Assembly: GCA_027317865.1 (NCBI GenBank)
Contig: DAHVQG010000005.1
Coordinates: 1-64,000 of the forward strand
Source of the DNA: Bdellovibrionales bacterium
GTDB lineage: Bacteria > Bdellovibrionota > Bdellovibrionia > Bdellovibrionales > UBA1609
Reading direction: 5' to 3'
DNA length: 64,000 nucleotides
In this document: positions 2,733-44,435 of the stretch, piece by piece
How positions within the stretch are numbered: the stretch's first letter is position 1
Layout of the letters: each line of letters begins with the position of its first letter
Translations under genes and position numbers: made by a program
The notes under the pieces: generated by a model
What the model was told of the DNA's origin: nothing
Database searches by the model: none
Seen by the model: only the letters and a program-made list of their open reading frames with translations

Positions 2733-2907
2733 CACACATACTACATTCTGAGCAATTGAAAAACAAAGAACGCAAATTGTATGCCGGTTAAAATAAATTT
2801 GCACCGGACTGGCTGGAACAAAAACTCGACTCAAGATGAGTCGCTAGTGCGCCTTTTAAGACAATTTGGCCGTTAACTTTCACCATCTAGGTGCCGACAA
2901 AGTGCCA

Positions 2908-3120
2908 ATGAGCGTTGAAAAGCTTGACTTTTTATTTCCATTTTTTGTTCTTGCTTACGGCGCAATTGTTACCTTTGTGTTGCATGCGCCATTTTTAGCG
3001 CGTGCTGAAAAGCGCCTCCCACAGGAGTGGGTATCGCAACTGCATACTCACCGCTATCTCGCGTTCATGTGCCTTATTATCGGCGGCCTCTGGTCGCTTC
3101 AAAACATTTGGTTTAGATAA
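2908..3120 (+). CDS. small membrane protein, two TM helices
   Basis: Two hydrophobic segments; fills the gap before xseA. Confidence 0.65.
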   Translation: MSVEKLDFLFPFFVLAYGAIVTFVLHAPFLARAEKRLPQEWVSQLHTHRYLAFMCLIIGGLWSLQNIWFR

Positions 3121-3143
3121 GCGGGCGTGGTAAAGAAATCCGA

Positions 3144-4631
3144 ATGAAGTCCTCTGATCTTCAAATCGGATTTGATTTTGATACGAATGCATCGTCTGGG
3201 GGTAAGGCCGCCCAGTCAGGCAAAGGGCGCTCAACCAAAAAGCCGGCGGTCAAAGAGCCGCAAGTTAATGAGCCTCAAAATGAAGAGATGCTAACGGAGG
3301 GACCAGAGTTAACAAAACCGCATGTTTACTCGATTTCAGAAATCAATGCGCACATCCGCCGCCGACTCGAAGGCGACTTCGGTGAAATTTGGATTCGCGG
3401 CGAGATTTCAAATTTTAAACCGCATTCTTCCGGCCATTTTTATTTTAGCCTCAAAGACGAAAGCGCGCAGATCAATGCAGTGATGTTTCGCGGGTTCAAT
3501 TCAAAATTAAAATTCAAGCCCGACAACGGGCTTGAAGTTCTGGTTCACGGCAAAATTACAGTTTATGAACCGAGGGGCAATTATCAGGTTTTTTGCGAGT
3601 ACATGGAGCCTGTCGGCGCCGGCGCGCTACAAAAAGCATTTGAACAGCTTAAAGAAAAGTTAAACGCTGAGGGACTTTTTGCTCCCGAGCGAAAACGCGC
3701 GATCCCCAAGTACCCGAGGCACATTGGCATCGTGACTTCGCCGACTGGGGCGGCACTTCAAGATATTTTAAATGTTTTAAGGCGACGCTATAAATCCGCA
3801 AAGATCACGCTTGCGCCCGCTCTCGTGCAAGGTGATGGCGCGACTGACTCCTTAGTTCAAGCGCTCGAAATGATTAACAAGGTTAAAGGCATTGACGTCC
3901 TTATCGTCGGGCGCGGCGGCGGTTCGGCCGAAGATCTTTGGTGTTTTAACGAAGAGCGCGTGGCGCGTGCGATTGCGGCCTCGAAAATTCCAACAATATC
4001 AGCCGTAGGCCACGAGATTGATTTTACAATCGCCGATTTTGTCGCCGATTTGCGTGCGCCGACTCCGTCAGCGGCGGCCGAACTAGTGGCAAAAAGCATT
4101 ACAGAAACTCTGGAGCGAATTCAGTCATTCAAACTTTGCTTGTGGCAGTGTTGGCGGTCGGGGATGGCAAAAAGAGTGGAGCGCGTCGGTGCGCTTAGCA
4201 GACAGCTCGTTGATCCGCAACGGCGGCTTCGTGATTTGCAGTTTCGAAACGATGAGCTGATGGTGCGGCTTGAAAATGCAATGTTTCGGTATTTTGAAGA
4301 CCAAAGTGTTTTTGTAGATCTAACCCGGCAAAAGATGCCAAGCCCGCAAGAAAAAATTCTACAACTGCATAAGCGGCTTGATTTCGCAGACGTTAAACTT
4401 TCAAGTTTTATACTGAAGTTTATTGAGGCTCGCGGGGCGCGCCTTCGCGAAGGGGCCGGGCGGCTCGACGCTATGAGCCCCTTGCGTGTCGTTGAAAGAG
4501 GGTACTCTATAGTTAAAAAGCAAGACGGAGTAATTGTGAAATATTCGGCGCAACTAAAGTTAGGCGAAAAAGTGCAGTTAACGTTTTCAAAGGGAACGGC
4601 GCTAGCCAATATCGAAAAAGTTGAACCTTAA
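3144..4631 (+). CDS. xseA: exodeoxyribonuclease VII large subunit
   Basis: GEISNF, SGHFYFSLKD, RGGGSAEDLW, GHEIDFTIADFVADLRAPTPSAAAE. Confidence 0.98.
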   Translation: MKSSDLQIGFDFDTNASSGGKAAQSGKGRSTKKPAVKEPQVNEPQNEEMLTEGPELTKPHVYSISEINAHIRRRLEGDFGEIWIRGEISNFKPHSSGHFYFSLKDESAQINAVMFRGFNSKLKFKPDNGLEVLVHGKITVYEPRGNYQVFCEYMEPVGAGALQKAFEQLKEKLNAEGLFAPERKRAIPKYPRHIGIVTSPTGAALQDILNVLRRRYKSAKITLAPALVQGDGATDSLVQALEMINKVKGIDVLIVGRGGGSAEDLWCFNEERVARAIAASKIPTISAVGHEIDFTIADFVADLRAPTPSAAAELVAKSITETLERIQSFKLCLWQCWRSGMAKRVERVGALSRQLVDPQRRLRDLQFRNDELMVRLENAMFRYFEDQSVFVDLTRQKMPSPQEKILQLHKRLDFADVKLSSFILKFIEARGARLREGAGRLDAMSPLRVVERGYSIVKKQDGVIVKYSAQLKLGEKVQLTFSKGTALANIEKVEP

Positions 4632-4641
4632 GGAGAAAAAA

Positions 4642-4860
4642 ATGGAATTTGAAAAAAAACTTGAGCGTCTTGAAGAGATCGTAAAGGTTATGGAGGCCGG
4701 GAATACATCCCTCGAAGAATCGCTGCGAATTTTTGAAGAGGGCGTACGCTTGTCGCGCGAGTTACAAAACACGCTCGCGGCCGCTGAAGAAAAAGTGAAG
4801 GTTCTTCTCAAGGTCGACGCCGATGGCAATGCCACTTATAAAGATACTGCTAAAGAATGA
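4642..4860 (+). CDS. xseB: exodeoxyribonuclease VII small subunit
   Basis: FEKKLERLEEIV...SLEESLRIFEEG; AGGAG RBS; follows xseA. Confidence 0.97.
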   Translation: MEFEKKLERLEEIVKVMEAGNTSLEESLRIFEEGVRLSRELQNTLAAAEEKVKVLLKVDADGNATYKDTAKE

Positions 4861-5732
4861 GTCCCGAAGATATTAGACTTCAAGCCGCAATAGACGGGTT
4901 GAATAATTTTTTTGAACGGCACCTTGAATCGCGTTCGCGGGCATTAGGTGAAAATTTGGCGAATGCGGCCATATTAAAGAGCGCGATGGAATATTCGCTC
5001 TTTTCTGGCGGCAAACGGTTTCGTCCACAAGTCGCGTTTTTAACGGCCGAGCTTTTAGAAATGGCGCCAGAGCGCGTGGTCGCTCACGCTGCTGCTGTTG
5101 AACTGGTTCACACCTATTCACTCATCCACGATGATTTGCCTTGCATGGACGACGACACGTTTCGGCGAGGTGTATATACGAATCATATTTTATATGGAGA
5201 AGATAAGGCCCTGCTTGCCGGCGATGCCCTTCTTACCGAGGCATTTGATGTGCTGGCCACGCATTACTCCTATGCGCCCGAAATTGGGCTGGAGCTCACG
5301 CGCCTGTTGTCTGAAGCCGCCGGGTTTACGGGTATGATTGCCGGTCAAATTGCCGATCTTGATTTGGCCCGGCGCGAGCATCAAGGGAGCGTCGAGAAAA
5401 TATTGGCGATGCACAGCCGAAAAACGGGAGCGCTTATTCGCTATGCGGCAGAAGGGACAGCAGTAGTTGCGAGAGCGTCAAAGTCGGAACAAGAAAAAAT
5501 CGGCCAATTTGGCACTCAGCTGGGACTTGCCTTCCAAATCGCGGATGACCTTCTTGATTACGCACCTAATTGTGTTGAGAAAAACGGCCTCCCCTATGTT
5601 TTGGGAGTCAAAAAGTCTCGCGAACTATTATTAAAAGTTACAAATGACTGTAAAAGGATATTGGAACAATACGGTGCGCGCGCAAAAGGTCTTTTAAAAA
5701 TTGTAGAAAACAATTGCCTGCGTGATCATTAG
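4857..5732 (+). CDS. ispA: farnesyl/geranylgeranyl diphosphate synthase
   Basis: GGKRFRP, SLIHDDLPCMDDD, KTGAL, AFQIADDLLD. Confidence 0.95.
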   Translation: MSPEDIRLQAAIDGLNNFFERHLESRSRALGENLANAAILKSAMEYSLFSGGKRFRPQVAFLTAELLEMAPERVVAHAAAVELVHTYSLIHDDLPCMDDDTFRRGVYTNHILYGEDKALLAGDALLTEAFDVLATHYSYAPEIGLELTRLLSEAAGFTGMIAGQIADLDLARREHQGSVEKILAMHSRKTGALIRYAAEGTAVVARASKSEQEKIGQFGTQLGLAFQIADDLLDYAPNCVEKNGLPYVLGVKKSRELLLKVTNDCKRILEQYGARAKGLLKIVENNCLRDH

Positions 5733-5754
5733 TCGCTAGTAATTGCCACCGATT

Positions 5755-6978
5755 ATGAAATCATTCTTGAAAACTCCGACAGCATTTTTTTCGGTTAGTG
5801 CATTTGTCGCTACAATTGCACTATTGTGTTTTTCGCTTCAGGCGCGAGCATATCCCGAGTACGCCACGCGCTACAATATAATGAGCTGTACCGCCTGCCA
5901 CGTCAGTCCATCGGGCGGCGGTCCGCGAACGCTTAACGGAAAACTATTTAGTGCGCACGGTTTTAAAATGAATCCCTTTTTAGTTCAACCGTACGTTTCA
6001 GCGGATTTCCGCACGATTTTTTATGATCCACAAAATGTGAAGCAATCCAGTGACGGCATGGGCGTCATGTCGGGTTCAATCGCCGCCAATTTGCCGGTGG
6101 ACGCCTCTCATCGCATCCACCTTGTAGTCAATCAAAACGTCGCGGGATTTTCAATTGCACCCACGCGAAGCGCCTATGCACTTTTTGAGTTGTCGCCAAA
6201 CGACGGTCGCCCGCACATGTTTGACGATTTAATGGTCGGTCGTATTCGGCCGGCATTCGGTATTGTAACCGATGAGCACCGCACCTATACGCACATTCAA
6301 ACAGGGACAATGTGGTACGAATTTGATACGGGAGCGCAACTCTCGGGCACTCCCACTCCACACATCCATTATGATTTAGCGCTTGTAAACGGAACTACAA
6401 GTCCAACGGCTGGAACCACCTTCGGGCAAGATCAAGCCCAACAGTTTGGCGGATTTTTTAATATTCGTTATATGCCCACTTGGGTGATGATCGGAGCAAG
6501 TGGGGAGTACTGGCCGGCGGCGGCGGGTCAGGCATCGCAGCAAGCGCTCACGCTTTATTCTATTGCTTCAATTGGGCGTGCAACTTGGAACCGAATACCT
6601 GTTGATATCAAACTTGAATTTGATGAAGCCCGAAACGAAGACAGCAATTTGACGACAAGTGGATTTATTAGCCAGACGTATGTTACTGCGCTGGGAGCCG
6701 CGCAGTCCCAAGGCGCCATGGCCTGGGTTGATTACAACGTAAATAACCGCCTGACACTTATTTATAAATATGACTACCTTGTGCCCGACGTCGATTACGG
6801 CGGAGATTATTTTGATCGAAACGGAATTGGATTTCGTTGGTTCATTGGCCCTGGCGTCGATATTCAAGCTCGAACCGAGCTTGCACACGTGACGGCGACC
6901 AATTCGGCTGTGCAAAACGATAAAACAGATTGGGGTACACAAAATGCCACATTTGCGTTTTTACAAATTGAGATTTAG
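5755..6978 (+). CDS. Cyc2-like outer-membrane cytochrome c-porin fusion
   Basis: Signal peptide (ARA|Y), N-terminal PEYATRY-x4-CTACH then GKLFSAHGF, followed by about 330 aa of amphipathic aromatic-rich beta strands ending AFLQIEI. Confidence 0.75.
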   Translation: MKSFLKTPTAFFSVSAFVATIALLCFSLQARAYPEYATRYNIMSCTACHVSPSGGGPRTLNGKLFSAHGFKMNPFLVQPYVSADFRTIFYDPQNVKQSSDGMGVMSGSIAANLPVDASHRIHLVVNQNVAGFSIAPTRSAYALFELSPNDGRPHMFDDLMVGRIRPAFGIVTDEHRTYTHIQTGTMWYEFDTGAQLSGTPTPHIHYDLALVNGTTSPTAGTTFGQDQAQQFGGFFNIRYMPTWVMIGASGEYWPAAAGQASQQALTLYSIASIGRATWNRIPVDIKLEFDEARNEDSNLTTSGFISQTYVTALGAAQSQGAMAWVDYNVNNRLTLIYKYDYLVPDVDYGGDYFDRNGIGFRWFIGPGVDIQARTELAHVTATNSAVQNDKTDWGTQNATFAFLQIEI

Positions 6979-7306
6979 CGCTGTTACGAGCGCAAAGCGC
7001 CTCGCCATTTGGGCAGGTCTTTTCTTTTTTATTGCAGCTCCGCTCGCGCACGCTGAGGTTATCGGAGACCCGAACCGCGGCAAAACAAAGGCGCAAATTT
7101 GCGCCGCCTGCCACGGAGCAAATGGTATTAGCGTCAACGATAATTGGCCAAATTTGGCGGGCCAAAAAGAGAATTATATTGTTGAACAGCTAAAGGCCTT
7201 TCAGGACGGCACTCGCGCTAACCCTATTATGAGTGGTATAGCAAAGATGCTCACCCAGCAGGACATCCACGATTTGGCGGCATACTTTTCGCATATGAAA
7301 CCATAA
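6944..7306 (+). CDS. periplasmic monoheme cytochrome c (c4/c553-type)
   Basis: Signal peptide AHA|E, CAACHGANG, PNLAGQ, RANPIM axial Met; true start may be slightly downstream. Confidence 0.93.
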   Translation: MPHLRFYKLRFSAVTSAKRLAIWAGLFFFIAAPLAHAEVIGDPNRGKTKAQICAACHGANGISVNDNWPNLAGQKENYIVEQLKAFQDGTRANPIMSGIAKMLTQQDIHDLAAYFSHMKP

Positions 7307-7307
7307 T

Positions 7308-8309
7308 ATGGTTAAATTAACTATTTTTGGGTCGTTTTTGGCTATTTTAATGGTCATTGTGTCTTCTTGTTCGCCCAATAATGGCAGGCACCTTGAAATT
7401 GCTCCAAACCAAGAAGAAAGTGGCGGCGGTGGTGGCAGCGGCGGAAATGGCCTGGCCTGGGACGGGCAAATAAAGGCGATTTTCTTTAACCGCTGTGGAC
7501 CTTGTCACCACGCCGGAGCTCCAATACCGGACTGGGAGAACTACCAGACGGTCTATCAATTTCGACAAAAAATATTTGATTATGCAGTCACCACGCATTT
7601 TATGCCGCTAAATAATGCGACGAACATGACTCAGGCGGAACGTAATATCCTCGGCGAATGGATTAAAGCGGGTGCACCAAAAACAAGCGGATCTCCAACG
7701 CCAAGTCCTTCGCCGACGCCTTCACCGACACCGTCACCCACGCCATCACCGCAACCTGGTCCAACCGTTGTGCACGCCTGTTTTGCTTGCCATGACAGCG
7801 ATGGTTTGGCCGAATCCTCGCCCGATTATATTCCGCGGCTAGCTGGCGAACCCGAACAATATATTGAAAATCAACTGAATGATTTTAAATCGGGTAAGCG
7901 CAATGATCCAAATGGAATAATGAACGCCGAAGCCCAAGCGCTGTCGAGCGAAGATATCAAAACAGTGGCAAAGTATTTTTCATCGCTCCCCGTGTTTACT
8001 AAAACAGTTGAACAGAATACGAAGCCGACCGTTTTGCCGCCGACTGAAGTGGCAACCTGGCAAGCCGGCCAAACCAAAGCCGCCGAGTGCATGACCTGTC
8101 ACGTGCCGCCTGGCCAGTCGCCGCTACCGGGTCTCGTTGTGCCGCACCTTTTGGCGCAAAAACAGGGGTACTTGGCTGCACAACTTAAAAGTTTTAGAGA
8201 CAAGTCTCGCAAAAACACAATTATGAACACAATGGCCGCGTCGCTTACCGACTCTGATATTCAAGCTTTGACGCTATATTTGTCTTTACCTACGGCCGTC
8301 ACGAAGTAA
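7308..8309 (+). CDS. triheme cytochrome c lipoprotein: N-terminal monoheme domain, Pro/Thr linker, diheme c4 domain
   Basis: Lipobox-like VSSC; CGPCH, CFACH, CMTCH; PRLAGE/PHLLAQ c4 motifs with distal Met. Confidence 0.88.
   Translation: MVKLTIFGSFLAILMVIVSSCSPNNGRHLEIAPNQEESGGGGGSGGNGLAWDGQIKAIFFNRCGPCHHAGAPIPDWENYQTVYQFRQKIFDYAVTTHFMPLNNATNMTQAERNILGEWIKAGAPKTSGSPTPSPSPTPSPTPSPTPSPQPGPTVVHACFACHDSDGLAESSPDYIPRLAGEPEQYIENQLNDFKSGKRNDPNGIMNAEAQALSSEDIKTVAKYFSSLPVFTKTVEQNTKPTVLPPTEVATWQAGQTKAAECMTCHVPPGQSPLPGLVVPHLLAQKQGYLAAQLKSFRDKSRKNTIMNTMAASLTDSDIQALTLYLSLPTAVTK
7692..7757 (+). repeat. in-frame (SPTP)n low-complexity linker
   Basis: Encodes SPTPSPSPTPSPTPSPTPSPQP with varied codons. Confidence 0.85.
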
Positions 8310-8321
8310 CATTTCTACCCT

Positions 8322-9095
8322 ATGAAAATGCGAATCGACCAAGCTCTTTTTGAGCTTGGTTTTGCTCCGTCAAAAACCAAAGCCCAAGAATTGATCTCCG
8401 CCGGTGAGGTCGAATTTCGAACAAAGAACGGGTTGTGGAGGCGCGCTGAAAAACCGGGGATGCCGATTACGGTTGAAGAGTACGAAATTCGAATATCTGA
8501 AGCTTCAGACATTTTGAAATATGTTTCTCGCGGAGGTCTCAAGCTCGAGGGAGCACTGCAAGGCCTAAGACTTAACGTCAACGGTTTTAGAGTGCTTGAC
8601 GTCGGAGTTTCAACTGGTGGATTTACCGACTGCCTTCTTCAACATGGGGCAGAGCATGTGACGGCAATTGACGTTTCACGCAACGGCGAGCTTGCCGAAA
8701 AACTTCGCAGAGATAACAGAGTGGAGTTTATTTGCCGCATCAATGCGCGCCACTTACGTGAGGAGCTTAAAGTTAACCAACTGTTCGATTTGGTGGTTAT
8801 CGATGTCTCATTTATTTCTCTCAGCGCGGTTTTGCCTGAAGTTTTTGATTTCATAATGCCCGGAGGTAAACTCCTTGGGCTAATCAAGCCGCAATTCGAG
8901 GTAGGGCAAAAGCATCTCAATAAGCGGGGTATCGTTAAATCCTCTGCCGCAATCGAGGAGGCGCTGACTCGCCTTAAGTCTGAAGCCGAAAAGGCGCGAT
9001 TTTTGGTTTGTGATGTTTTTAAGTCGCGGGTAAAAGGCAAGGATGGGAACCAGGAGTATTTTCTTTATGCACAAAAACCCAAGGGCGGTTTATAA
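8322..9095 (+). CDS. tlyA: TlyA family rRNA 2'-O-methyltransferase
   Basis: S4 domain, YVSRGGLKL, DVGVSTGGFTDCLLQ, DVSFISL, LIKPQFEVG, GKDGNQEY. Confidence 0.95.
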   Translation: MKMRIDQALFELGFAPSKTKAQELISAGEVEFRTKNGLWRRAEKPGMPITVEEYEIRISEASDILKYVSRGGLKLEGALQGLRLNVNGFRVLDVGVSTGGFTDCLLQHGAEHVTAIDVSRNGELAEKLRRDNRVEFICRINARHLREELKVNQLFDLVVIDVSFISLSAVLPEVFDFIMPGGKLLGLIKPQFEVGQKHLNKRGIVKSSAAIEEALTRLKSEAEKARFLVCDVFKSRVKGKDGNQEYFLYAQKPKGGL

Positions 9096-10026
9096 AAATC
9101 TGAGTCGTTTTGTCGTGGGCGCGATTTTTGGTCTCAGTATATTACTTAATGGTTGTACAAGCCTTACGCGCCGGATGACGGGCGAAAATGTCAACGCACC
9201 TTCAGGTAAAGCAGCAAACGCAACGTCGAACCAGTTTGGCACTCCATCGAACATTGCCCAATCTAATAAAAAAGTCGCGGTGATACTAGGTCCGGGCGGC
9301 TATAAATCCATAGCTGAAGTCGGCGTACTTAAGGAGCTTATAAAAGCAAAAATCCCGATACAAGCTGTTGCTGGGGTTGAATGGGGGGCTTTAGTCGGAG
9401 CGCTCTATGCACAACATGGGCAAATTAACGAAGCGGAATGGAAGCTCTACAAATTAAGCGCACTTCATCTCGGAGCCGTTAGTTTTTTTACAAGAAGGCG
9501 TGAAACCAAATCAGTCGGCGTGATTGCGCATTTTTTGCGCCAAAATTTGGCTAATGAAGATGTTTCGAAAACAAGCCTTCCGTTTATGTGCCCGACCCTG
9601 AATCTCATTTTAGGCACGGTGCAGATTCAAACACACGGGAACCTCCCCGAGGTGGTGCAAAACTGTTTGGCCCTCCCGCCAATATTTAATCCACGAGGGA
9701 GCTTGATGGCCGCGCCACTAAGTCTGCCCGACATAGTGATGGATTTGCGCGCGCAAGGTTACAACGTGATTATTTTAGTAAACGTGTTGGGCGACGGGGA
9801 TTTGTTTTACCATTCAAGAACCGTGGTTAATGATTCAACTATTGCTTTGTGGGATGAAATTCGCCGACAAATTTTTAGTGTCGAATCAATGGTGACGGAC
9901 GTCATCGACGTCGACACACAAGGGATAAGTCTTGACGATTTTAGCGCGCGTAATCGGCTTTTGACTGCTGGCGAAGTGGCCGGCGACAAAGCGACCGGTA
10001 CGCTATCAAATAAATACGGTTTTTAA
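9067..10026 (+). CDS. patatin-like lipoprotein, probably catalytically inactive
   Basis: Lipobox LNGC; VAVILGPGG-x6-GVL; GVEWGALVGALYA in place of GxSxG. Confidence 0.75.
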   Translation: MHKNPRAVYKNLSRFVVGAIFGLSILLNGCTSLTRRMTGENVNAPSGKAANATSNQFGTPSNIAQSNKKVAVILGPGGYKSIAEVGVLKELIKAKIPIQAVAGVEWGALVGALYAQHGQINEAEWKLYKLSALHLGAVSFFTRRRETKSVGVIAHFLRQNLANEDVSKTSLPFMCPTLNLILGTVQIQTHGNLPEVVQNCLALPPIFNPRGSLMAAPLSLPDIVMDLRAQGYNVIILVNVLGDGDLFYHSRTVVNDSTIALWDEIRRQIFSVESMVTDVIDVDTQGISLDDFSARNRLLTAGEVAGDKATGTLSNKYGF

Positions 10027-10043
10027 AAAAGAAGGAGCTACCC

Positions 10044-11360
10044 GTGCGAACGCCGCAATATGCAATGTCGATATTTAAAGAACGGCGAAAGAAATTGGCC
10101 AATCATTTAAAAGACAGCGCGCTGATATTGACCGCCAATCCCGAAGTTATCAGAAACGGCGATGTTCATTATCCTTTTCGGCAGAACTCCAACATGTTTT
10201 ATTTGACCGGTTTTGAAGAGCCAAATTCAGCGGTTATTTTTCGCCCGGGTAAAAATCCGGAAACGGTTTTATTTGTTATGTCAAAAGATCCGGCGCAAGA
10301 GACCTGGACGGGTTTTCGCTACGGCGTTGAGGGTGCCAAACGGTATTTTGAAGTCGACGAGGTCTATTCAATAGATTCGGTTCAAGACGAGCTGCCAAAG
10401 CTTCTTTCGGACGTGGATCAAATTTACTATTCTCTCTTTTCAAATACAAATTTTGATACAATTCTAATGGATATTATAAACGATTTGACCTGGTCTCGGT
10501 CGCGTTCTAACCGGGGCAATCTTCCGATAATTGATCCCTGTGCGATGCTGGGTGAAATGAGGCTTCGTAAATCCAATGTTGAAGTGGAATGGCACAGGCG
10601 CGCATGTGAGATTTCAGCCGAGGCGCATATCGAAGTGATGAAAACTATTCGGCCCGGCATAAACGAGCGCGCGCTTCACGGAGTTTTTCTGCGCTCGATT
10701 ATGGAGCGGGGCTGCGCGCGTGAAGGTTACGGAGCTATCGTTGCGGGCGGCGAAAATGCGACCACACTCCACTATGAGTTTAACGACCAAGTTTGCAAAG
10801 ATGGCGACCTTCTTCTTCTCGACGCGGGGGCAGAATACAATTATTTTTCAGGCGATATTACGCGGGTGTTTCCGGTGAACGGACGGTTTAGCGACACGCA
10901 AAAGCGAATTTATCAAAAAATGTTGAACGTGCAAAAAGACTTGGTGTCACTCGTAAAACCAGGGACAAGCCGTGAGGCTTTACAAACTGAAACGGTTTCT
11001 CGGCTCACTGAACTTATGATTGATGAAAAACTTTTGAAGGGCCGAAAAGACGACCTCATTGAAAAAAAAGAATACGAACGCTTTTACATGCATCGTGTTT
11101 CGCATTGGCTTGGCATGGAGGTTCATGACGCGGGGACAACCTTGGTTAACGGTGAGCCGCGCGTAATTGAGCCAGGATTTGTTCTTACAATTGAGCCAGG
11201 TCTTTACATTTCAAAAGACGCACCAGGGGTCCCGGATGAGTTGCGCGGCATCGGGATTCGTATTGAAGACGACGTTTTAGTTACCGAGTCGGGGCACGAA
11301 GTTCTCTCGAGTAAATGTCCAAAAGAAATTGCCGACATTGAGGCGGTCATGCGGCATTAA
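10044..11360 (+). CDS. pepP: Xaa-Pro aminopeptidase P
   Basis: FRQNSNMFYLTGFEEP, LLLDAGAE, DITR, HWLGMEVHD, TIEPGLY, GIRIEDD. Confidence 0.95.
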   Translation: MRTPQYAMSIFKERRKKLANHLKDSALILTANPEVIRNGDVHYPFRQNSNMFYLTGFEEPNSAVIFRPGKNPETVLFVMSKDPAQETWTGFRYGVEGAKRYFEVDEVYSIDSVQDELPKLLSDVDQIYYSLFSNTNFDTILMDIINDLTWSRSRSNRGNLPIIDPCAMLGEMRLRKSNVEVEWHRRACEISAEAHIEVMKTIRPGINERALHGVFLRSIMERGCAREGYGAIVAGGENATTLHYEFNDQVCKDGDLLLLDAGAEYNYFSGDITRVFPVNGRFSDTQKRIYQKMLNVQKDLVSLVKPGTSREALQTETVSRLTELMIDEKLLKGRKDDLIEKKEYERFYMHRVSHWLGMEVHDAGTTLVNGEPRVIEPGFVLTIEPGLYISKDAPGVPDELRGIGIRIEDDVLVTESGHEVLSSKCPKEIADIEAVMRH

Positions 11361-12100
11361 GGCCGATACGAATGAAAATGCCAACCGCGCGTGCGGGCAA
11401 CGGCAAGTAAGGCTTCTTCAGATTCCCGATTAAAATGTCCGGGAGGCGCGCCAAGGTTTGCAATGCGGATGCGCCGGGCACATTCGAGTAGCGGCAAATC
11501 GCCCATTGTATTGCCGGCGGCAAGAAACGGTAGTTTGCGGCCGGTTGCTTCGAGTAACCCGGTCACTTTACCTTCGTGCCAGGTCAGTGGGCCTTCAGGT
11601 TTTTCAGTAATTTTACCCTCGTAAATTTCAGTTTTAATGCCGATCACATTTTCCGCAGCAATCCCTATGGCCTCAGCAGCCGGTTCAACAGCCCAGCGAA
11701 CTGAAGCGGTAACACAATAAACGTGTACGTCACGCGCTTTTAAATAAGCGACAAGATCTTTCATGAACGGAAAAAACGGCGGTGGTTCAAGTGTGGCAAA
11801 CGCTTCGCGTGCCCAACCGCGAACGGTCGTAAGCGGAATATCCTTCATGATCTGCGCGAGCCAAACAAGAGCCCCAGGTGTTTCGCGAACGTACCACTGG
11901 CGATAATGCTCCCACGGGTTGGGGGGCAAATTCGGCAAAAGATTTTTTGCTATTTGGTACTGAAAAAAATGTTCGCCAACGTCGGTATCCCATAGTGTGC
12001 CGTCGGCATCGAATGCGGCAATTCGGTCGACACCGGCATCGAGCGCCTGGTCAATCTGCTTTTTAATCTTTACGATCTTCTCTTGCGGAAAAGGTTTCAT
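11357..12100 (-). CDS. HAD-family phosphatase
   Basis: AFDADGTLW motif I, TAS motif II, GNTMGD motif IV. Confidence 0.9.
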   Translation of the reverse strand: MKPFPQEKIVKIKKQIDQALDAGVDRIAAFDADGTLWDTDVGEHFFQYQIAKNLLPNLPPNPWEHYRQWYVRETPGALVWLAQIMKDIPLTTVRGWAREAFATLEPPPFFPFMKDLVAYLKARDVHVYCVTASVRWAVEPAAEAIGIAAENVIGIKTEIYEGKITEKPEGPLTWHEGKVTGLLEATGRKLPFLAAGNTMGDLPLLECARRIRIANLGAPPGHFNRESEEALLAVARTRGWHFHSYRP

Positions 12101-25304: not shown

Positions 25305-27365
25305 ATGTCAGCAGGAGACTGGGGAAATATAAATTTTCAAACTATGCTACGAGACTGGCAGAACTCCAAAGAGTATCGGGATCTCAATTGGGTTGGTAGT
25401 TTTAACGACTACATCAATCTCGTAAAGCGAAACCCCAAAATTTCCCGCAATGCTTTTCAACGAATGTATGACCTCATTGTCGAAAAAGGGTTTGAGGAAT
25501 ACGTCGACGTGAAGAAACACGTCCTTCATTATAAATTTTTTGACGACGAAGAAAATGGCGGCAGAGATGCGGTTTTCGGACTTGATATTCCCCTTATGAA
25601 GCTTGTGAATATTTTAAAGGCTGCGGCCCAAGGCTACGGCGCGGAAAAGCGCGTAATTCTATTGCACGGTCCTGTGGGGAGCGCGAAATCTACCGTTTGC
25701 CGGATGCTCAAAAAAGGTGTGGAGGCCTATTCGAAAAGCGACCAAGGTGCCGTCTACACTTTTGAGTGGTTTGATGAAGCAGGTGAACACGAAGACATTT
25801 TCGGCAAAGGAGTTCGGATTTTTCCAAGCCCCATGCATGAGGAGCCGCTCCTGCTCGTTCCCGAAGAAATGCGCCCGAAGCTTTGCGATGAGTTAAATCG
25901 AAGCGTAAAGGACGATTTTCGCGTACAAATTCAAGGTGAACTTTGCCCGCCGAGCCGCTTTATCATGAGACGGCTCTTAGAAAAATATAATGGCAATATC
26001 GAGCGTGTTTTTAATCACGTGCGCGTGAAGAGACTTATTTTGAGCGAAGCGGATCGCGTCGGCATTGGCACCTTTCAGCCAAAAGACGAAAAAAACCAAG
26101 ACAGCACCGAGCTCACCGGCGATCTCAATTATAGAAAAATTGCGGAGTACGGCTCGGATTCGGACCCGCGGGCATTTAATTTTGACGGCGAATTCAATAT
26201 TGCCAATCGCGGAGTCATCGAGTTTGTCGAGGTTCTAAAGCTCGACGTTGCATTTTTGTACGACCTTTTGGGGGCTTCTCAAGAGCATCGGGTGAAACCA
26301 AAAAAGTTTGCTCAAACCCATATTGACGAAGTCATCATCGGCCATACCAACGAGCCCGAGTTTAGGCGGCTGCAAGATAACGAATTCATGGAGGCTTTGC
26401 GCGACCGCACAGTGCGCATCGACATCCCGTACATCACAAAGTGGAACGAAGAAATTAAAATATACAAAAAGGATTTTAACAGTAAGCGCTTAAAGGGCGT
26501 GAGTATTGCCCCGCACACAATTGAAATGGCGGCCATGTGGGCGGTGCTGACCCGCCTCGAAAAGCCCAAAAAAGCGAATCTCACGCGAGTGCAAAAACTT
26601 AAACTTTATGATGGCAAAACAATTCCGAATTTTACTGAAGACAATGTGAAAGAACTTCGAAAAGAAGCCAAGCGTGAGGGCTTAGACGGAATTTCACCCC
26701 GGTACATTCAAGATAAAATTTCTAATGCGATTGTAATGGCTCAACAACTCAATCGCGGGTCTGTGAGCCCGATGTTGGTTCTCAATGAACTCGAGTCGGG
26801 CCTTAAAAATCATCCGCTCATGGCCAATAACGAAGAAATTCGAAACGACTATCGGGAACTTATCGGCGTGGTTAAGCAAGAGTACGAAGAAATTATTAAG
26901 GCCGAGGTTCAACATGCAGTGAGTAACGACGAGGGCGCATTAGATCGCTTGTGTTCAAATTATATTGAGAACGTAAAGGCCTATACGCAGGGCAAAGAGG
27001 TCGACGAGCGACTCATGCGATCGATTGAAGATAAAATCGATATACCGGAATCAAGAAAAGACGACTTTCGACACGAAATACGCAATTACATCGATTCACA
27101 CGCGCTCGAAGGCAAAAAATTTGATTACAAGACAAACGAGCGGCTCCACCGGGCATTTGAACGAAAATTATTTGAGGATGAGCGCGACACGATAAAACTC
27201 ACCGCCCACATTTCTTCAGAAGATAGCAAAGAAACGCGTGAAAAAGTCGACATTGTGAAATCAAGACTTATAAAGGAATTTGGTTACGACGAAATTTCGG
27301 CCCACGATGTACTAGAGCATGTAGCCGGGATTTTCGCGCGAGGCGATGTAAAAGAGAAAAAATAG
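25305..27365 (+). CDS. prkA: PrkA/YeaG AAA+ serine protein kinase
   Basis: [41 protein letters not shown]. Confidence 0.95.
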
Positions 27366-27394
27366 GGCCGGCAAATCCCCCTGCGAGTATCACT

Positions 27395-28492
27395 ATGTCG
27401 ATTTTAGAAGACCATCGACGGTTTCGCGAAATTATTAAGGGCCGTATCAAGCAACATTTCAAGAAATACGTCACACAAGGCGAAATGATCGGAAAGCAAG
27501 AAAAGGAATTTGTGAAAATTCCTGTGCCGTCGATTGAAATTCCAAAATTTAAATATGGACCGAAGGATCAAAGCGGAGTGGGCCAGGGTCAGGGTCAACC
27601 CGGTGACGCCGTTCAAGGCCAGCAAGGTGAAGGCAAAGGTCAAGCTGGTGATACCCCCGGTCAACATATGCTTGAAGTCGACGTTTCACTTGAAGAACTC
27701 GCCGACATTTTGGGCGAAGAATTGGAGCTTCCGCGTATTCAGCCAAAAGGCAATAAGACAATTGAAACAGTACAGACGCGCTACACGGGTCGCTCCCCGA
27801 TTGGACCGAACTCCCTGCGGCTTTTTAAACAAAGTTACAAAGAGGCGCTGAAGAGGCAAATTACAGAAGGCACTTACAACGCCGACGATCCTGTTGTGGT
27901 ACCGATTAAAGACGATATGCGTTTTCGGACGTTTAAAAAAGTAACCCGCCCGCAAGCCAACGCAGTAGTCATCTATATGATGGATGTTTCTGGCTCGATG
28001 GGCGATGAGCAAAAAGAAATTGTGCGGCTTGAAAGTTTTTGGATTAATACATGGCTAAGGCGAAATTATCGCGGCCTTGAAACTCGATTTATCATTCACG
28101 ATGCCGCGGCAAAAGAAGTTGATGAGAAAACTTTTTTCTCGACTAGTGAATCCGGCGGCACGCTGATCTCTTCGGCCTATAAGCTTGCGCGAAAAATCGT
28201 AGAAGAAGAATATCCGGCGAACGCTTGGAATATCTACCCGTTTCATTTCAGCGACGGAGACAATTGGAGCGGCGAAGACACGCGCGTTTGCCTAAGCCTT
28301 CTTAAAGATTTTTTTCTTCCGAGTGTTAATATGTTTGGCTACGGCCAAGTTGAGTCGAAATACGGCTCGGGTCAATTTCTCAAAGATCTTGAAAAGGCGT
28401 TTACCGCTGACGATCGTTTAGTAATGAGTAAAATTGAAAATCGCGATAAAATCATGCAATCGATAAAAGAATTTTTGGGCCGGGGTCGCTGA
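27395..28492 (+). CDS. yeaH: YeaH/YhbH (DUF444) vWA-like protein
   Basis: DHRRF, MMDVSGSM, SESGGT, FHFSDGDNW. Confidence 0.93.
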   Translation: MSILEDHRRFREIIKGRIKQHFKKYVTQGEMIGKQEKEFVKIPVPSIEIPKFKYGPKDQSGVGQGQGQPGDAVQGQQGEGKGQAGDTPGQHMLEVDVSLEELADILGEELELPRIQPKGNKTIETVQTRYTGRSPIGPNSLRLFKQSYKEALKRQITEGTYNADDPVVVPIKDDMRFRTFKKVTRPQANAVVIYMMDVSGSMGDEQKEIVRLESFWINTWLRRNYRGLETRFIIHDAAAKEVDEKTFFSTSESGGTLISSAYKLARKIVEEEYPANAWNIYPFHFSDGDNWSGEDTRVCLSLLKDFFLPSVNMFGYGQVESKYGSGQFLKDLEKAFTADDRLVMSKIENRDKIMQSIKEFLGRGR

Positions 28493-28514
28493 TGAAAGTA
28501 AAAGGGTGTTGTAG

Positions 28515-29948
28515 ATGAGCGAAAAACGCCTGCCGCAAGAGCTTGAAAAGGCCCGCATCTATATCTGTGACGAGGCCAGAAAGCACGGGCTTGATTTTTT
28601 CGAAACAATTTTTGAGCTTGTAACCTACAAACAGCTCAACGAAATCGCGGCCAAGGGGGGATTCCCCACGCGTTACCCGCACTGGCGTTTCGGTATGGAT
28701 TACGAACAGCTTTCAAAAAGTTACGAATTTGGACTGTCAAAAATTTATGAACTCGTAATCAACAACGATCCTTGCTACGCGTATCTTATGGAAGGCAACG
28801 ACTTTGTCGACCAAAAACTCGTTATGGCCCACGTCTACGGGCACTGTGATTTTTTTAAAAACAATAAATGGTTCGGAAAGACAAACCGCAAGATGATTAA
28901 CGAAATGGCTAACCATGCGGTCAAAGTTCGCAGACTCATTGACGAGCACGGCCTCGATGTCGTCGAAGATTTTATCGACCGTTGTTTGAGCTTAGAAAAT
29001 TTAATCAACGCATACAGTGTTTATAAGGGCCCGTCGATTTCACGCCAGAGAAACGGTCAGGAGGTCGAAAGCCCGCCCACTCTTGATCGGGCAGAGCGGG
29101 ACATTTTAAAATTTCTTCTTGATTATGCGCCACTAGAAGAATGGCAACATGCCGTCTTAAACATCGTCCGCGATGAAGCCTACTATTTCGCTCCACAAGC
29201 GATGACAAAAATAATGAATGAGGGATGGGCATCATATTGGCACGCAAAACTCATGACTGAGCGGGTTTTGCACGATTGTGAAATTGTGGACTTTGCTGAC
29301 CGGCACAGCGGGGCGCTGGTGATGCCCCCGTCAGGTTTTAATCCGTATAAAATTGGTATCGAGCTTTTTCGGGAGATTGAATCGCGCTGGAACCGCGGGC
29401 AGTTTGGGCCGGAGTGGGAAAGCTGTGACGATTTAGCGGCAAAAAAAAATTGGGATACAAAAGTGGGCCGGGGGCGTGAAAAGATTTTCGAAGTCCGGCG
29501 CGACTATAACGATGTTACATTTATTGACGAGTTTTTAACCGAAGGATTTTGTCGCGAGCACAAAATGTTCGTTTATCATTTTAATAAGCGAACAGGGCAA
29601 TTCGAGGTCGACAATCGCGATTTTAAAACGATAAAGAAAAAGTTTTTATTTCAGATTACGAACATGGGCATGCCGATCATCAGTGTTGTCGACGGCAATT
29701 TCAATCAAAACGGCGAGCTCCTCCTCACGCATCTTTTTGAGGGTGTTGAAATGCAGCCCGATTACATGCGGGCAACAATGGAGAATCTCTTTGCGCTTTG
29801 GAAGAAGCCGGTTCACGTTGCGACGGTTATGGATGGTGAAGGGCGAATTTTCACCTGGGATGGATCGGAATTTCGTCATTCGCCTTTTGGAGACATTGCT
29901 GTCGCAGCGGACGACAAAGAAGAAGCGGAATCAACCGAATCCGATTAA
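28515..29948 (+). CDS. spoVR: SpoVR/YcgB family protein
   Basis: RYPHWRFG, IYELVINNDP, AHVYGHCDFF, TKIMNEGWASYWH. Confidence 0.95.
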   Translation: MSEKRLPQELEKARIYICDEARKHGLDFFETIFELVTYKQLNEIAAKGGFPTRYPHWRFGMDYEQLSKSYEFGLSKIYELVINNDPCYAYLMEGNDFVDQKLVMAHVYGHCDFFKNNKWFGKTNRKMINEMANHAVKVRRLIDEHGLDVVEDFIDRCLSLENLINAYSVYKGPSISRQRNGQEVESPPTLDRAERDILKFLLDYAPLEEWQHAVLNIVRDEAYYFAPQAMTKIMNEGWASYWHAKLMTERVLHDCEIVDFADRHSGALVMPPSGFNPYKIGIELFREIESRWNRGQFGPEWESCDDLAAKKNWDTKVGRGREKIFEVRRDYNDVTFIDEFLTEGFCREHKMFVYHFNKRTGQFEVDNRDFKTIKKKFLFQITNMGMPIISVVDGNFNQNGELLLTHLFEGVEMQPDYMRATMENLFALWKKPVHVATVMDGEGRIFTWDGSEFRHSPFGDIAVAADDKEEAESTESD

Positions 29949-38266: not shown

Positions 38267-38443
38267 AAACACAGCTTACGCACAATTTTTTTGGGCGACT
38301 AGTAATCGCAGCCGCCAACGCGTTGCAAAATTTGAGTCATCTTTACTCAATTTATGCCAAATTGTTCAACATTAGTGACTTGTTATTGTTTTGCATTTAT
38401 ATGTGAAAACACAAAACAAGATTTTTCAGCCGAAGAGAGTCTT

Positions 38444-38998
38444 ATGTCTAGTGATCAAGATGACTACGACAAAGGCGGCCTGATTGCCTTTGTCTTCGCG
38501 ATGGGTTTTAGCATTTTATTTATCACCTACATTGCATTCTTTCACAAGGGCGTTGACCTGAAAGAAATCCCAACGGGTCACGAAACTGCGACAACCCAAA
38601 TGCCCTTAGCAACGGCCGGTGGCGTGAAAGATGTCGACGTTTCAGGCATTACCAATCCATGGGTTCCTAACCCAAAAATGGTTCAACACGGCCATTTCGT
38701 GTTTGAACAAAACTGTACGATGTGCCATGGCCCACAAGGGTTAGGTAACGGTCCAGCGGCAGCAACACTTAATCCGCATCCGCGCAATCTCGTCAAAGGG
38801 CACTGGCATTCGAAGGGCGATTCGATCGCGTTATTCAAAGTCTTGCAAAAGGGTATCCCCGGCAGTGCGATGCCTTCATGGAAGGCCTTGCCCGTTAAGG
38901 ATCGTTGGGCGCTTGTGCAATTCATTCGGTCAATTACGCACAATAAAGTTCCTGACAATCCTGCCGAACTTGCGGAGTTTGCGAAGACTGCAAATTAA
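38444..38998 (+). CDS. membrane-anchored monoheme cytochrome c
   Basis: TM helix, CTMCHGPQGLGNGP, PRNL, GIPGSAMP. Confidence 0.9.
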   Translation: MSSDQDDYDKGGLIAFVFAMGFSILFITYIAFFHKGVDLKEIPTGHETATTQMPLATAGGVKDVDVSGITNPWVPNPKMVQHGHFVFEQNCTMCHGPQGLGNGPAAATLNPHPRNLVKGHWHSKGDSIALFKVLQKGIPGSAMPSWKALPVKDRWALVQFIRSITHNKVPDNPAELAEFAKTAN

Positions 38999-39000
38999 AA

Positions 39001-39894
39001 ATGATTAAAGGCGAAAGAATGCTACGAAAGTTAATGACATCGATTGTGGTTGTTTTTTTAGCCATTCCATCGACGGCCATTGCTGCGGAAGCATATCCCG
39101 GCGAGAACGAATCACAGGTCGCCTCAACTGTCGTGCCCCAACAATTGCAAGGCGTGGGCATCACCCAACATTTGGGTAAAAAAATTGATCTCAATTTGCA
39201 GTTCACCAGCTCGAGCGGGAAGACGCATAAACTTGCCGATTTTTTTAATCATAAACATCCCGTTGTAATGGCGATGGTCTATTACCGCTGCAGAAACCTT
39301 TGTGGATATTTAATGATGGGTCTTGCCCATACATTTAAAAAAATGAAGGTTAAGGCTGGCAAATTCTACAGCGTGATTATCGTAAGCATGGATCCGACTG
39401 AAACACCCAAAATGGCTGCGGCAAAGAAATCTATGATTATGAAAGCGTTGGGCGAGCCAGGCGCGGGCAAGCACTGGCATTTTATGGTGGGCAATAAAGC
39501 CAATGTTCATGCGCTCGCTAATGAATTGGGATTTCATTATAAGTGGGACGCGCAACTCAAAGAATTTGCCCATCCAACATCCACTTATATTTTGACATCT
39601 AAAGGTAAAATTACCCGGTATTTGTTTGGTATTGGTTTTCCGGCTGAAACGATGCGCCTTTCGCTCGTTCAGGCGGGGCGCGGTCAAGTCGGGAGATTCA
39701 CGGACGAGCTTGCGCTTTGTTGTTTTCGGTTCAGCTCCGGCGACAACAAATACATTTTGTGGTCGTTTAATCTTATGCGAATCGCCTGCGTTATCACCGT
39801 AATTATTTTAGCAATAGTGTTACTCCCTGCTTGGATTAAAGGACGAAAACGTGGTCCACCTAACAAAACCTCAAATCCGTCAGCAGGGCCCTAA
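39001..39894 (+). CDS. SCO/SenC copper chaperone
   Basis: CRNLC (CxxxC), FAHP His, C-terminal TM; precedes coxB. Confidence 0.9.
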   Translation: MIKGERMLRKLMTSIVVVFLAIPSTAIAAEAYPGENESQVASTVVPQQLQGVGITQHLGKKIDLNLQFTSSSGKTHKLADFFNHKHPVVMAMVYYRCRNLCGYLMMGLAHTFKKMKVKAGKFYSVIIVSMDPTETPKMAAAKKSMIMKALGEPGAGKHWHFMVGNKANVHALANELGFHYKWDAQLKEFAHPTSTYILTSKGKITRYLFGIGFPAETMRLSLVQAGRGQVGRFTDELALCCFRFSSGDNKYILWSFNLMRIACVITVIILAIVLLPAWIKGRKRGPPNKTSNPSAGP

Positions 39895-39906
39895 AGGAGA
39901 GACGAA

Positions 39907-40875: not shown

Positions 40876-40884
40876 GGAGCCGTC

Positions 40885-43132: not shown

Positions 43133-43138
43133 AAAATT

Positions 43139-43507
43139 ATGGCAGACAGTAAAGTTGTAACAGCTGGACACGCGGGCGGGCACTCACACGGCAGTCATCA
43201 CATAACGCCCATCTCAACTTACTTTAAAACAATGATCGCGCTTTTGTGCTTAACGATCTTGACGACGCTGGTGGCAAGACCGGTAACCGGTTTCAACATT
43301 GGCATCTTCAATACATTTCTTAATTTTTTAATTGCCGCAATAAAGGGCTCGCTCGTACTCGCCTTTTTTATGGGACTTAAATATGACAAAAAAATACACC
43401 TCGTGATATTTTCAATGGGATTATTTTTTCTACTAATATTTCTGTCATTTTGCCTACTCGACATTTACACCCGAGTGCATGTAATAAGTCCCCTTGTTGG
43501 CGCTTAA
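43139..43507 (+). CDS. coxD: cytochrome c oxidase subunit IV
   Basis: LLCLTILT, IAAIKGSLVLAFFMGLKY; three TMs. Confidence 0.9.
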   Translation: MADSKVVTAGHAGGHSHGSHHITPISTYFKTMIALLCLTILTTLVARPVTGFNIGIFNTFLNFLIAAIKGSLVLAFFMGLKYDKKIHLVIFSMGLFFLLIFLSFCLLDIYTRVHVISPLVGA

Positions 43508-43509
43508 CT

Positions 43510-44406: not shown

Positions 44407-44435
44407 TTGTCCGCGCGCTTTGAAGGGCTTTAGCG

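Follow-up and report, generated by a model that had tools for sequence, protein, structure and literature searches.

A Cyc2-like cytochrome-porin and its c4-type cytochrome partners in Bdellovibrionota

A cytochrome-porin gene followed by two cytochrome genes

The 64,000-nucleotide stretch analysed here (positions 1 to 64,000 of contig DAHVQG010000005.1 in assembly GCA_027317865.1 of a Bdellovibrionales bacterium; hereafter, the window) contains three consecutive forward-strand genes, denoted genes 1, 2 and 3, of which the first encodes a predicted outer-membrane β-barrel with a heme-binding segment fused to its N-terminus, and the other two encode class I c-type cytochromes (Table 1). The three genes contain one, one and three CxxCH heme-attachment motifs, respectively. 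Their tight coupling, described in an earlier note that was made from the nucleotide sequence alone, is borne out by the coordinates of the open reading frames (ORFs): genes 1 and 2 share 35 nt, a figure that falls to 11 nt with the in-frame TTG at 6968 as the start of gene 2, and genes 2 and 3 are separated by a single base pair (7307). This arrangement is real and more specific than a chance occurrence of a heme motif.

The CxxCH of gene 1 is located 12 residues past the predicted signal peptide cleavage site, which we place before Y33, the position from which the relatives of the protein align onward. The motif is preceded by P34-E-Y-A-T-R-Y40-NIMS and followed, after another 12 residues, by G62-KL-F65-SAH-G69-F70; the earlier note gave this motif correctly, apart from the spacing between H49 and G62, counted there as 11 residues. 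Among 27 aligned relatives, A32, C45, C48, H49, G54, G62 and K63 of the heme segment are invariant.

The barrel of about 16 strands for which structure prediction had been proposed as a check appears in the AlphaFold2 model of gene 1, obtained with 27 relatives as input, as exactly 16 strands that extend from residue 81 to the C-terminus (mean predicted local distance difference test score, pLDDT, 82.8; predicted template modelling score 0.81). Counted from a periplasmic N-terminus, the strands are connected by periplasmic turns of 2-10 residues and by long outer loops (residues 165-190, 212-231, 294-316 and 381-397). A Foldseek comparison with the PDB yielded 235 matches at E<=1e-3, the top ones all porins of 16-18 strands, with OprP (2o4v, E 2.6e-11) at rank 2 and OprO (4rjw, E 6.5e-11) at rank 7, at a template modelling (TM) score of about 0.5. 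The 48-residue mature heme segment ahead of the barrel, including residues 41-80, has a pLDDT of 82-84 and is therefore predicted to pack on the barrel rather than to hang free. The most conserved block of the barrel, G-R-F-R-x-P-F-G-I-V-T-D-E-H-R-T-Y, starts at the end of strand 5 and reaches into the long loop that leads to strand 6, in which F168, G169, H175, R176, T177 and Y178 are invariant among the 27 aligned relatives. In an alignment that takes in the most distant relatives, M105 and H175 are kept in at least 90% of the sequences; either residue is a candidate distal heme ligand, and the loop as a whole might contribute a heme ligand or a substrate site.

The products of genes 2 and 3 are related to cytochromes c4. 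Gene 2 encodes a Sec-type leader and one class I cytochrome c domain (Pfam Cytochrom_C, 37.9 bits against a cut-off of 21.3), with the N-terminal half of Pseudomonas aeruginosa cytochrome c4 as the best PDB sequence match (6q2u, E 2.8e-28), and its product is predicted to be a secreted monoheme class I cytochrome c that amounts to half of a c4. Gene 3 (Cytochrom_C, 49.6 bits, same cut-off) combines a lipoprotein signal, a disordered tether, a divergent class I heme domain, a linker and a diheme c4 module. The latter matches Acidithiobacillus ferrooxidans cytochrome c4 (1h1o) with E 1.3e-17, other c4 proteins being about equally similar, and the AlphaFold2 model of gene 3 (pLDDT 82.3) is most similar in fold to 8smr_K (E 1.3e-08), the c4 that belongs to the bc1-cbb3 supercomplex of P. 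aeruginosa, whereas 1h1o comes at ranks 5-6. Triheme partners with the layout of gene 3 are present 28 times at related loci, and in the alignment of gene 3 with 27 of these, C21 of the lipobox, the three CxxCH motifs, P100 and M306 are invariant, whereas M205 is kept in at least 90% of the 28 rows. The description of genes 2 and 3 as a c4-type monoheme and a triheme cytochrome is accurate with respect to c4 identity and heme counts; gene 3 is not simply a triheme cytochrome, given its lipoprotein signal.

In 24 of the 28 aligned triheme rows, a histidine, mostly within G-P-H, follows the lipid-anchor cysteine by 5-8 residues (window positions 7368-7391, aa 21-28 of gene 3). The tether around it is otherwise variable and predicted to be disordered, and this histidine could serve as a heme ligand or a docking residue. 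The first heme domain of some of the partners matches PccH (PF22297) over profile positions 1 to 30-47 only, around the heme site, and mostly near the cut-off (38.1 bits for the best match shown, in L031); we treat this similarity as a lead and do not assign the domain to PccH.

Table 1 Features of genes 1-3 and of the caa3-type oxidase operon in the window
Feature	Position (nt)	Strand	Residues and details
Gene 1	5755-6978	+	407 aa ORF from ATG 5755; alternative TTG start 5743
Gene 1, predicted signal peptide	5755-5850	+	aa 1-32; hydrophobic stretch, then A-R-A before Y33
Gene 1, heme-binding segment	5851-5994	+	aa 33-80; A32-Y-P-E-Y-A-T-R-Y40, C45TACH49, P52-S-GGG-P-R58, G62KLF65SAHGF70
Gene 1, CxxCH	5887-5901	+	aa 45-49, CTACH
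Gene 1, predicted 16-strand β-barrel	5995-6975	+	aa 81-407; AlphaFold2 strand list, Foldseek matches
Gene 1, long loop between strands 5 and 6	6247-6324	+	aa 165-190, RPAFGIVTDEHRTYTHIQ...; position of the porin constriction loop; pLDDT 80-90
Gene 2	6944-7306	+	120 aa ORF
Gene 2, CxxCH	7100-7114	+	aa 53-57, CAACH
Gene 3	7308-8309	+	333 aa ORF
Gene 3, lipobox Cys21	7368-7370	+	I-V-S-S-C21
Gene 3, tether		+	aa 22-46; predicted disordered, pLDDT below 50
Gene 3, heme-1 domain (CxxCH)	7494-7508	+	aa 63-67, CGPCH; divergent class I; M99-P100
Gene 3, Pro/Thr/Ser linker		+	about aa 124-150
Gene 3, diheme c4 (two CxxCH)	7779-7793; 8088-8102	+	aa 150-326; CFACH aa 158-162, CMTCH aa 261-265
caa3-type oxidase operon	38354-45329	+	Pfam: Cytochrom_C, SCO1-SenC, COX2 + fused Cytochrom_C, COX1 (E 6.4e-154), COX3, COX4_pro, UbiA (CtaB), COX15-CtaA

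Genes 1-3 are embedded in the array xseA-xseB-ispA-gene 1-gene 2-gene 3-tlyA-patatin-pepP, in which all genes point in one direction and are densely packed. The 5' neighbour (ORF 4857-5732) is a polyprenyl synthetase (Pfam E 1.9e-46) that scores 253 bits with the FPP synthase model, under the cut-off of 275, and the 3' neighbour (ORF 8322-9095) is a TlyA-type rRNA methyltransferase (TIGR00478, 185.4 bits against a cut-off of 185.8; FtsJ, E 4.6e-39). Five antisense ORFs within 6128-8092 match no Pfam family at E<=0.01. The G+C content of 6001-8000 (0.492) is inside the range of the window (0.439-0.498), so that composition gives no sign of foreign origin. Elsewhere, the window encodes a prkA-DUF444-spoVR trio, a stress operon of the yeaG-yeaH-ycgB type (25305-29948), a FIST-domain sensor adjoining a SpoIIE-type phosphatase (51644-54480) and a second, HAMP-SpoIIE phosphatase (60119-61918).

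The gene 1 family and its genomic linkage to cytochromes

A word-indexed search of 5.8 billion proteins retrieved 55 relatives of gene 1, the best non-identical one being 66% identical and only one, a Bdellovibrionales protein from a metagenome-assembled genome (MAG), being named; a phmmer search of 1.84 billion cluster representatives gave 223 matches at E<=1e-3, 131 of these at E<=1e-10 and 101 at E<=1e-30. Among the 201 proteins from both searches, 157 are full-length (at least 360 aa), and 154 of the 157 contain a CxxCH within the first 120 residues, the three exceptions being weak matches. Because the heme site is kept on this scale, the family is, judging from the sequences, a heme-protein family and not a generic porin family with an incidental CxxCH. 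The C-terminal residue is hydrophobic or aromatic in 154/154 full-length relatives (L in 64, F in 48, I in 33, Y in 4, M in 4 and V in 1).

The consensus of the family at the heme site is A-R-P-E-Y-A-[VA]-[RK]-x(4-5)-CxxCH-x-S-P-x-GGG-P-R-N-x-N-G-K-x-[FY]-G. Further groups, reached from the weakest phmmer matches and through two seeded searches, have the same plan and the signature CxxCH-xx-P-x-GGG-x-R, and the 43 proteins matched by a profile built from the five most divergent relatives all have the P-x-GGG form. When the two-heme relative P0240 served as the query, the best 120 of 245 matches were all two-heme forms, from MAGs of the FCB group; among the matches listed, two CxxCH motifs are present in 118 of the 119 members of this large group, in which the few proteins with a name come from MAGs of Krumholzibacteria, Eisenbacteria and Latescibacterota. 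In these heme-porins of about 475 aa (P0240, P0243-P0361), x-x-P-x-L, known from Cyc2, stands after the first CxxCH and P-x-GGG after the second. In the ESM Atlas, which offers no more than a lead here, the clusters nearest to gene 1 are unnamed, with Bdellovibrionota, Myxococcota and Nitrospirota as the commonest phyla.

Twelve diverse relatives of gene 1, compared with Pfam and NCBIfam at E<=10, yielded nothing above cut-off. Gene 1 gives no match with Porin_O_P (PF07396) at E<=10, and for three wider relatives the scores of 12-19 bits remain under the cut-off of 20.9. In the nearest ESM Atlas cluster to which any Pfam family is assigned, 20% of the proteins have Porin_O_P, which we regard as a lead only.

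Scanning of 185,579 species-representative genomes with the peptide pattern [PA]FG[IL]x[TN]DEHR, which derives from a Bdellovibrionota-heavy alignment and sets no bound on the range of the family, identified 67 loci, all in MAG records, with no cultured predator among them. Sixty-five of the loci carry names of Bdellovibrionota lineages (Bdellovibrionales, Pseudobdellovibrionaceae, Bdellovibrio sp., Oligoflexia, Bacteriovoracaceae and Halobacteriovoraceae), and two are named only as Proteobacteria or Deltaproteobacteria. We counted neighbours at the 66 loci with a callable gene 1 ORF, leaving out one at a contig end (L055). An ORF with CxxCH lies within 1.5 kb of the gene 1 homologue in 59 of the 66, and such motifs are found in 97 of 270 ORFs within this distance, compared to 6 of 373 ORFs at 1.5-6 kb (Fisher p 2e-34, a value that overstates independence, the loci being related to each other). 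Clustering of the 585 neighbour ORFs indicates that only cytochromes recur in more than two loci (54, 5 and 3 loci), and all the cytochrome neighbours scanned are class I domain proteins. Gene order and orientation vary among the loci, so that the linkage has outlasted rearrangement.

This conserved linkage bears on the possibility that gene 1 is a solute porin in which the heme serves as a structural plug, sensor or gate, or takes part in heme or iron acquisition, the neighbouring cytochromes belonging to unrelated respiration. Such a role would fit the resemblance of the barrel to anion- and phosphate-selective porins, the sub-threshold Porin_O_P matches of the three superfamily members, and a set of invariant charged residues that suit a selective channel (R86, R138, R163, D173, E174, R176, R238, E288, K338, D351, R355, R373 and E375). 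However, the association with cytochromes is the only conserved neighbourhood of the family and is hard to explain without a shared redox function, and genes 1 and 2 overlap translationally both in the window and in several relatives. Because of the cytochrome linkage, we consider a non-redox porin role quite improbable.

The setting between ispA and tlyA, the synteny of which the earlier note had proposed to trace in relatives, is common only to the two closest of them (L001 and L002). In these two genomes (L001 2347-3473, L002 5173-6293), the array xseAB-ispA-gene 1-gene 2-tlyA-patatin-pepP is kept, with the stop of gene 2 overlapping the start of tlyA and no remnant of gene 3 in between. 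Gene 1 of the window is 65-66% identical to its counterparts there, in the same range as the housekeeping neighbours (56-85%). The next clade (L003-L009) has gene 1, gene 2, a further cytochrome and gene 3 in the same order; this fourth cytochrome, of about 283-340 aa and mostly with two CxxCH motifs (for example, L007 5332-6213), is absent from the window. At one locus in a chromosome-level MAG (L056 5917-7217), the gene 1 homologue is divided between two ORFs (5917-6663 and 6693-7217) and has no cytochrome neighbour, which could reflect a pseudogene or an assembly error.

The only basis that we find for calling the host predator-like, as the earlier note did, is the titles of the related MAG records. 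The accompanying suggestion, namely, that the conduit is a predation device tapping reduced carriers of the prey periplasm during attack, found no support. No predation gene is linked to the module at any of the 66 loci, the related records include no cultured predator, and a monoheme pore suits small dissolved solutes rather than protein carriers, according to the account of Cyc2 in PMC8406198. The points on the other side are circumstantial: record titles place the relatives in a phylum known for predators, and a preprint (10.1101/2022.03.26.485925) speculates on extracellular electron transfer (EET) in predatory bacteria. We consider this function highly improbable.

A putative electron conduit across the outer membrane

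Given the fused architecture and the cytochrome partners described above, we propose that the products of genes 1-3 together form an electron conduit of three parts that crosses the outer membrane. By porin topology, the N-terminal heme segment of gene 1 would enter the barrel from the periplasmic side, and the loop between strands 5 and 6 would fold into the barrel from outside; because of this arrangement, the heme would be positioned inside the pore or at its mouth, accessible from the cell exterior to a small redox-active solute. The porin heme would then exchange electrons with gene 3, a membrane-tethered triheme protein with its c4 module on a flexible Pro/Thr linker, and also with the small soluble monoheme product of gene 2, and genes 2 and 3 would connect to the periplasmic cytochrome c pool and an oxidase such as caa3. 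Prediction of a complex between gene 1 (aa 33-407) and gene 3 (aa 21-125) with two hemes scored 0.01 against a mark of 0.32, a result that speaks neither for nor against binding. The presence of a caa3 operon in the window, already noted from the sequence, is confirmed by Pfam (Table 1); the operon is complete, lies 30 kb from genes 1-3 and is a candidate electron sink for them. It starts with a separate gene for a 214-aa monoheme cytochrome c (38354-38998) that precedes SCO1 and COX2 and whose product may likewise connect periplasmic carriers with the oxidase.

Electron flow through the conduit would most likely be inward, by analogy with the route from Cyc2 via Cyc1 (c4) to an oxidase, with dissolved Fe(II) or a similar soluble reductant as the most likely donor, and could serve a heterotrophic or predatory bacterium as an additional energy source or as a means of detoxification. 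We favour this direction because a pore with one heme is well matched to a small redox partner in solution, an argument made for Cyc2 (PMC8406198); because c4 proteins, such as the matched 8smr_K in the bc1-cbb3 supercomplex and the A. ferrooxidans c4 1h1o, are established carriers to cbb3 and aa3 oxidases; because of the model of the Cyc2 pathway, in which Cyc1 is described as the diheme carrier (PMC7029218; PMC10654088); and because the window contains a caa3 operon. Taken as a whole, an inward conduit across the outer membrane appears to us somewhat more probable than improbable, whereas Fe(II) specifically as the substrate of gene 1, a proposal by analogy, is rather doubtful.

The same conduit might work outward, passing electrons from the cytochrome c pool through genes 2 and 3 to the porin heme and on to an external or pore-accessible oxidant (Fe(III) chelates, humics, O2/H2O2 or NO), possibly as a detoxifying reductase or peroxidase. 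A c4 cytochrome normally takes electrons from bc1, as in the 8smr supercomplex, and might supply electrons to the porin heme just as easily as remove them; AlphaFold 3 models of canonical Cyc2 presented in a 2026 review (PMC13741234) show a single axial His, a geometry also typical of ligand-binding and peroxidatic hemes; and a 2022 preprint (10.1101/2022.03.26.485925) reports both oxidative and reductive EET markers in Bdellovibrionia operational taxonomic units. However, every fused monoheme cytochrome-porin that has been tested experimentally is an iron oxidase, and the known outward conduits are multiheme chains in 26-strand barrels, as PMC8406198 describes them, and no peroxidase-type family in Pfam or NCBIfam matched gene 1. 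Outward flow or peroxidase-like detoxification is a serious rival to the inward conduit, albeit one that we consider unlikely.

Several observations weigh against an inward conduit of the Cyc2 kind. The AlphaFold2 model of gene 1 contains no heme, and the axial ligand and the heme placement given above are inferences of ours. Gene 1 matches no family in Pfam or NCBIfam at E<=10 and so belongs to no curated family, and canonical Cyc2 came up in none of the searches for the gene 1 family, so that homology to a proven iron oxidase is putative; a tblastn search with the proteins P0001 and P0189 against 72,556 plasmid records, aimed at canonical Cyc2, likewise found no match at E<=10. No gene for carbon fixation or another lithotrophic function is present among the 32 window ORFs scanned. 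The genes belong to a tight array with housekeeping genes (xseAB, ispA, tlyA and pepP), and promoter and terminator signals across 2800-11500 do not rise above chance (4 promoter-like and 13 terminator-like sites, where 9.2 and 12.4, respectively, are expected), so that nothing hints at Fe-responsive control. Seven of the 66 loci have no cytochrome neighbour, two of these being cut at a contig end and one having a split gene; gene 3 is absent from the two closest relatives, for which loss would be the simpler explanation because the next clade keeps the gene order up to gene 3. The titles of the related MAG records span many habitat types and not iron-rich sites in particular. Finally, the two sequence motifs that flank the heme site of Cyc2 are both missing from gene 1, as follows.

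Cyc2 was defined by Keffer et al. (2021; PMC8406198) by one CXXCH, preceded at a distance of five residues by the motif AXPXFAR[Q/K][T/Y] and followed at four residues by PXL, together with a fused 16-strand porin and a length of at least 365 aa; the upstream motif is called unique to Cyc2 in that paper and served as the inclusion filter for a tree of 1,593 sequences, and OprP and OprO are given as the best structural matches of the porin. Gene 1 agrees with this definition in its signal peptide and single N-terminal CXXCH after a leader ending in ARA, in its OprO/OprP-like barrel of 16 strands and in its length of 407 aa. Its upstream string, A-Y-P-E-Y-A-T-R-Y, likewise ends five positions before C45 and is the same as the consensus at A, P, A and Y, with Y for F, R for Q/K and T for the Arg of FAR; downstream, H49-V-S-P-S-G-G-G-P-R-T-L contains no PXL. 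The family deviates in the same way: the strict motif P.FAR[QK][TY] is present in 0/361 fetched relatives of gene 1, in none of the best 150 of the 223 phmmer matches and in none of the best 120 of the 245 matches of P0240, and PxL at +3/+4 occurs in 0/154 full-length relatives, 140 of which have a P-x-GGG-like form. The description of gene 1 as Cyc2-like in the earlier note is therefore sound with respect to the fused monoheme cytochrome-porin architecture and too generous with respect to Cyc2 membership, both motifs being missing from the relatives, too; by its motifs, gene 1 is outside the Cyc2 family as the published definition has it.

Alternatively, gene 1 could be an ordinary divergent Cyc2, for example, a member of the loosely defined Cluster 3, that FeGenie would call; only the host phylum would then be new, the kind of gene being known already. 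The architecture, length class and porin templates are indeed the same, the upstream motif is nearly identical, and the consensus motif is described as varying by cluster, with Cluster 3 highly divergent (PMC8406198). FeGenie called Cyc2 in a Krumholzibacteria MAG in a bioreactor study (PMC7914226), and this call may correspond to our two-heme group, which is abundant among proteins named for Krumholzibacteria, Eisenbacteria and Latescibacterota; a table in a hot-spring study (PMC12501874) includes one Bdellovibrionota MAG among those with FeGenie iron-oxidation genes, the gene being unnamed there. Against these points stand the lack of the strict upstream motif in the 361 fetched relatives and of PxL in the 154 full-length ones, the return of only 223 matches from 1.84 billion cluster representatives, and the finding of another study (PMC13200544) that FeGenie at default settings detected no iron gene in two magnetotactic Bdellovibrionota MAGs. 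We consider it improbable that gene 1 is simply such a Cyc2, somewhat more so than outward flow. Nevertheless, in our view, gene 1 is too close to Cyc2 in motif, position and fold for the two to be unrelated designs, and common descent is plausible.

Our preferred reading, an inward conduit, concerns a module that is Cyc2-like in build and probably in working, lies outside the family as now defined and has an unusual lipoprotein triheme partner. More broadly, and only tentatively, the joint evidence might point to an unrecognised superfamily of fused cytochrome-porins, marked by AxPx[YF]Ax[RK]...CxxCH-xx-P-x-GGG-x-R and the in-barrel loop GRFxPxFG...D(E)H, that includes two-heme forms and spans several uncultured phyla; it would be a sister design to Cyc2, left out by the published motif filter, and, in Bdellovibrionota, would be firmly coupled to a triheme c4 with a lipid anchor.

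Searches for iron-oxidising bacteria rely mainly on Cyc2 as a genetic marker, which is itself recognised largely by a short motif. The family described here is conserved and unannotated and has the fused heme-porin design of Cyc2 and a set of c4 partners, but a different motif, so marker-based surveys may under-count organisms that exchange electrons across the outer membrane, and Bdellovibrionota, usually seen as prey-dependent predators, may possess a route of extracellular electron exchange. We found no literature joining "cytochrome-porin" with "Bdellovibrio", and the inspected portions of the literature that mention Cyc2 together with Bdellovibrionota or Bdellovibrio hold only co-mentions, one table row and one speculative sentence. 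If Fe(II) or another extracellular reductant is indeed oxidised, relatives of obligate predators would be able to feed their respiration with electrons from outside, and a whole class of candidates would be overlooked in surveys of iron oxidisers. With three genes and five hemes, the module is small and amenable to the E. coli expression approach used for Cyc2PV-1.

Comparison with known systems

Like genes 1-3, the MtrCAB, MtoAB/PioAB and Geobacter Pcc systems consist of an outer-membrane barrel and c-type cytochromes, one of them a lipoprotein, encoded side by side. In those systems, however, a separate decaheme cytochrome passes through a barrel of 26 strands, as described in PMC8406198, whereas gene 1 has 16 strands and a single fused heme, unlike any barrel of the MtrB/PioB type with its separate multiheme partner, and is accompanied by class I c4-type cytochromes. 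With OprP/OprO and the general 16-strand porins, gene 1 has the barrel in common; identity is about 11%, these porins carry no heme, and the likeness is confined to the fold.

Residues 150-326 of gene 3, as well as gene 2, resemble c4/Cyc1 proteins (1h1o, 6q2u, 1etp and the c4 of 8smr) in sequence, in fold (TM score on target 0.75-0.77) and in the presence of one CxxCH and one Met per domain. Unlike c4, gene 2 has a single domain, and gene 3 extends the diheme c4 by a lipid anchor, a disordered tether in which a His is conserved, a divergent third heme domain and a Pro/Thr linker.

The closest parallel is Cyc2 itself, as represented by A. ferrooxidans Cyc2, Mariprofundus Cyc2PV-1 and Leptospirillum Cyt572. 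These proteins and gene 1 alike have a signal peptide, a single CxxCH no more than a few dozen residues into the mature protein, a fused barrel of 16 strands for which OprO/OprP serve as templates, a length of about 400 aa or more, and a c4-type cytochrome as a genetic associate; upstream of the heme, both have A-x-P-x-(F/Y)-A, a basic residue one position later and Y, at the same offset from the heme Cys. They differ in that the Arg of FAR is T in gene 1 and V or A in its family, and that PxL is replaced by P-x-GGG-x-R. The cytochrome segment of gene 1 is shorter, with the barrel beginning at residue 81, and its partner is a triheme lipoprotein instead of a soluble diheme cytochrome, with neither rusticyanin or another cupredoxin nor an adjacent oxidase.

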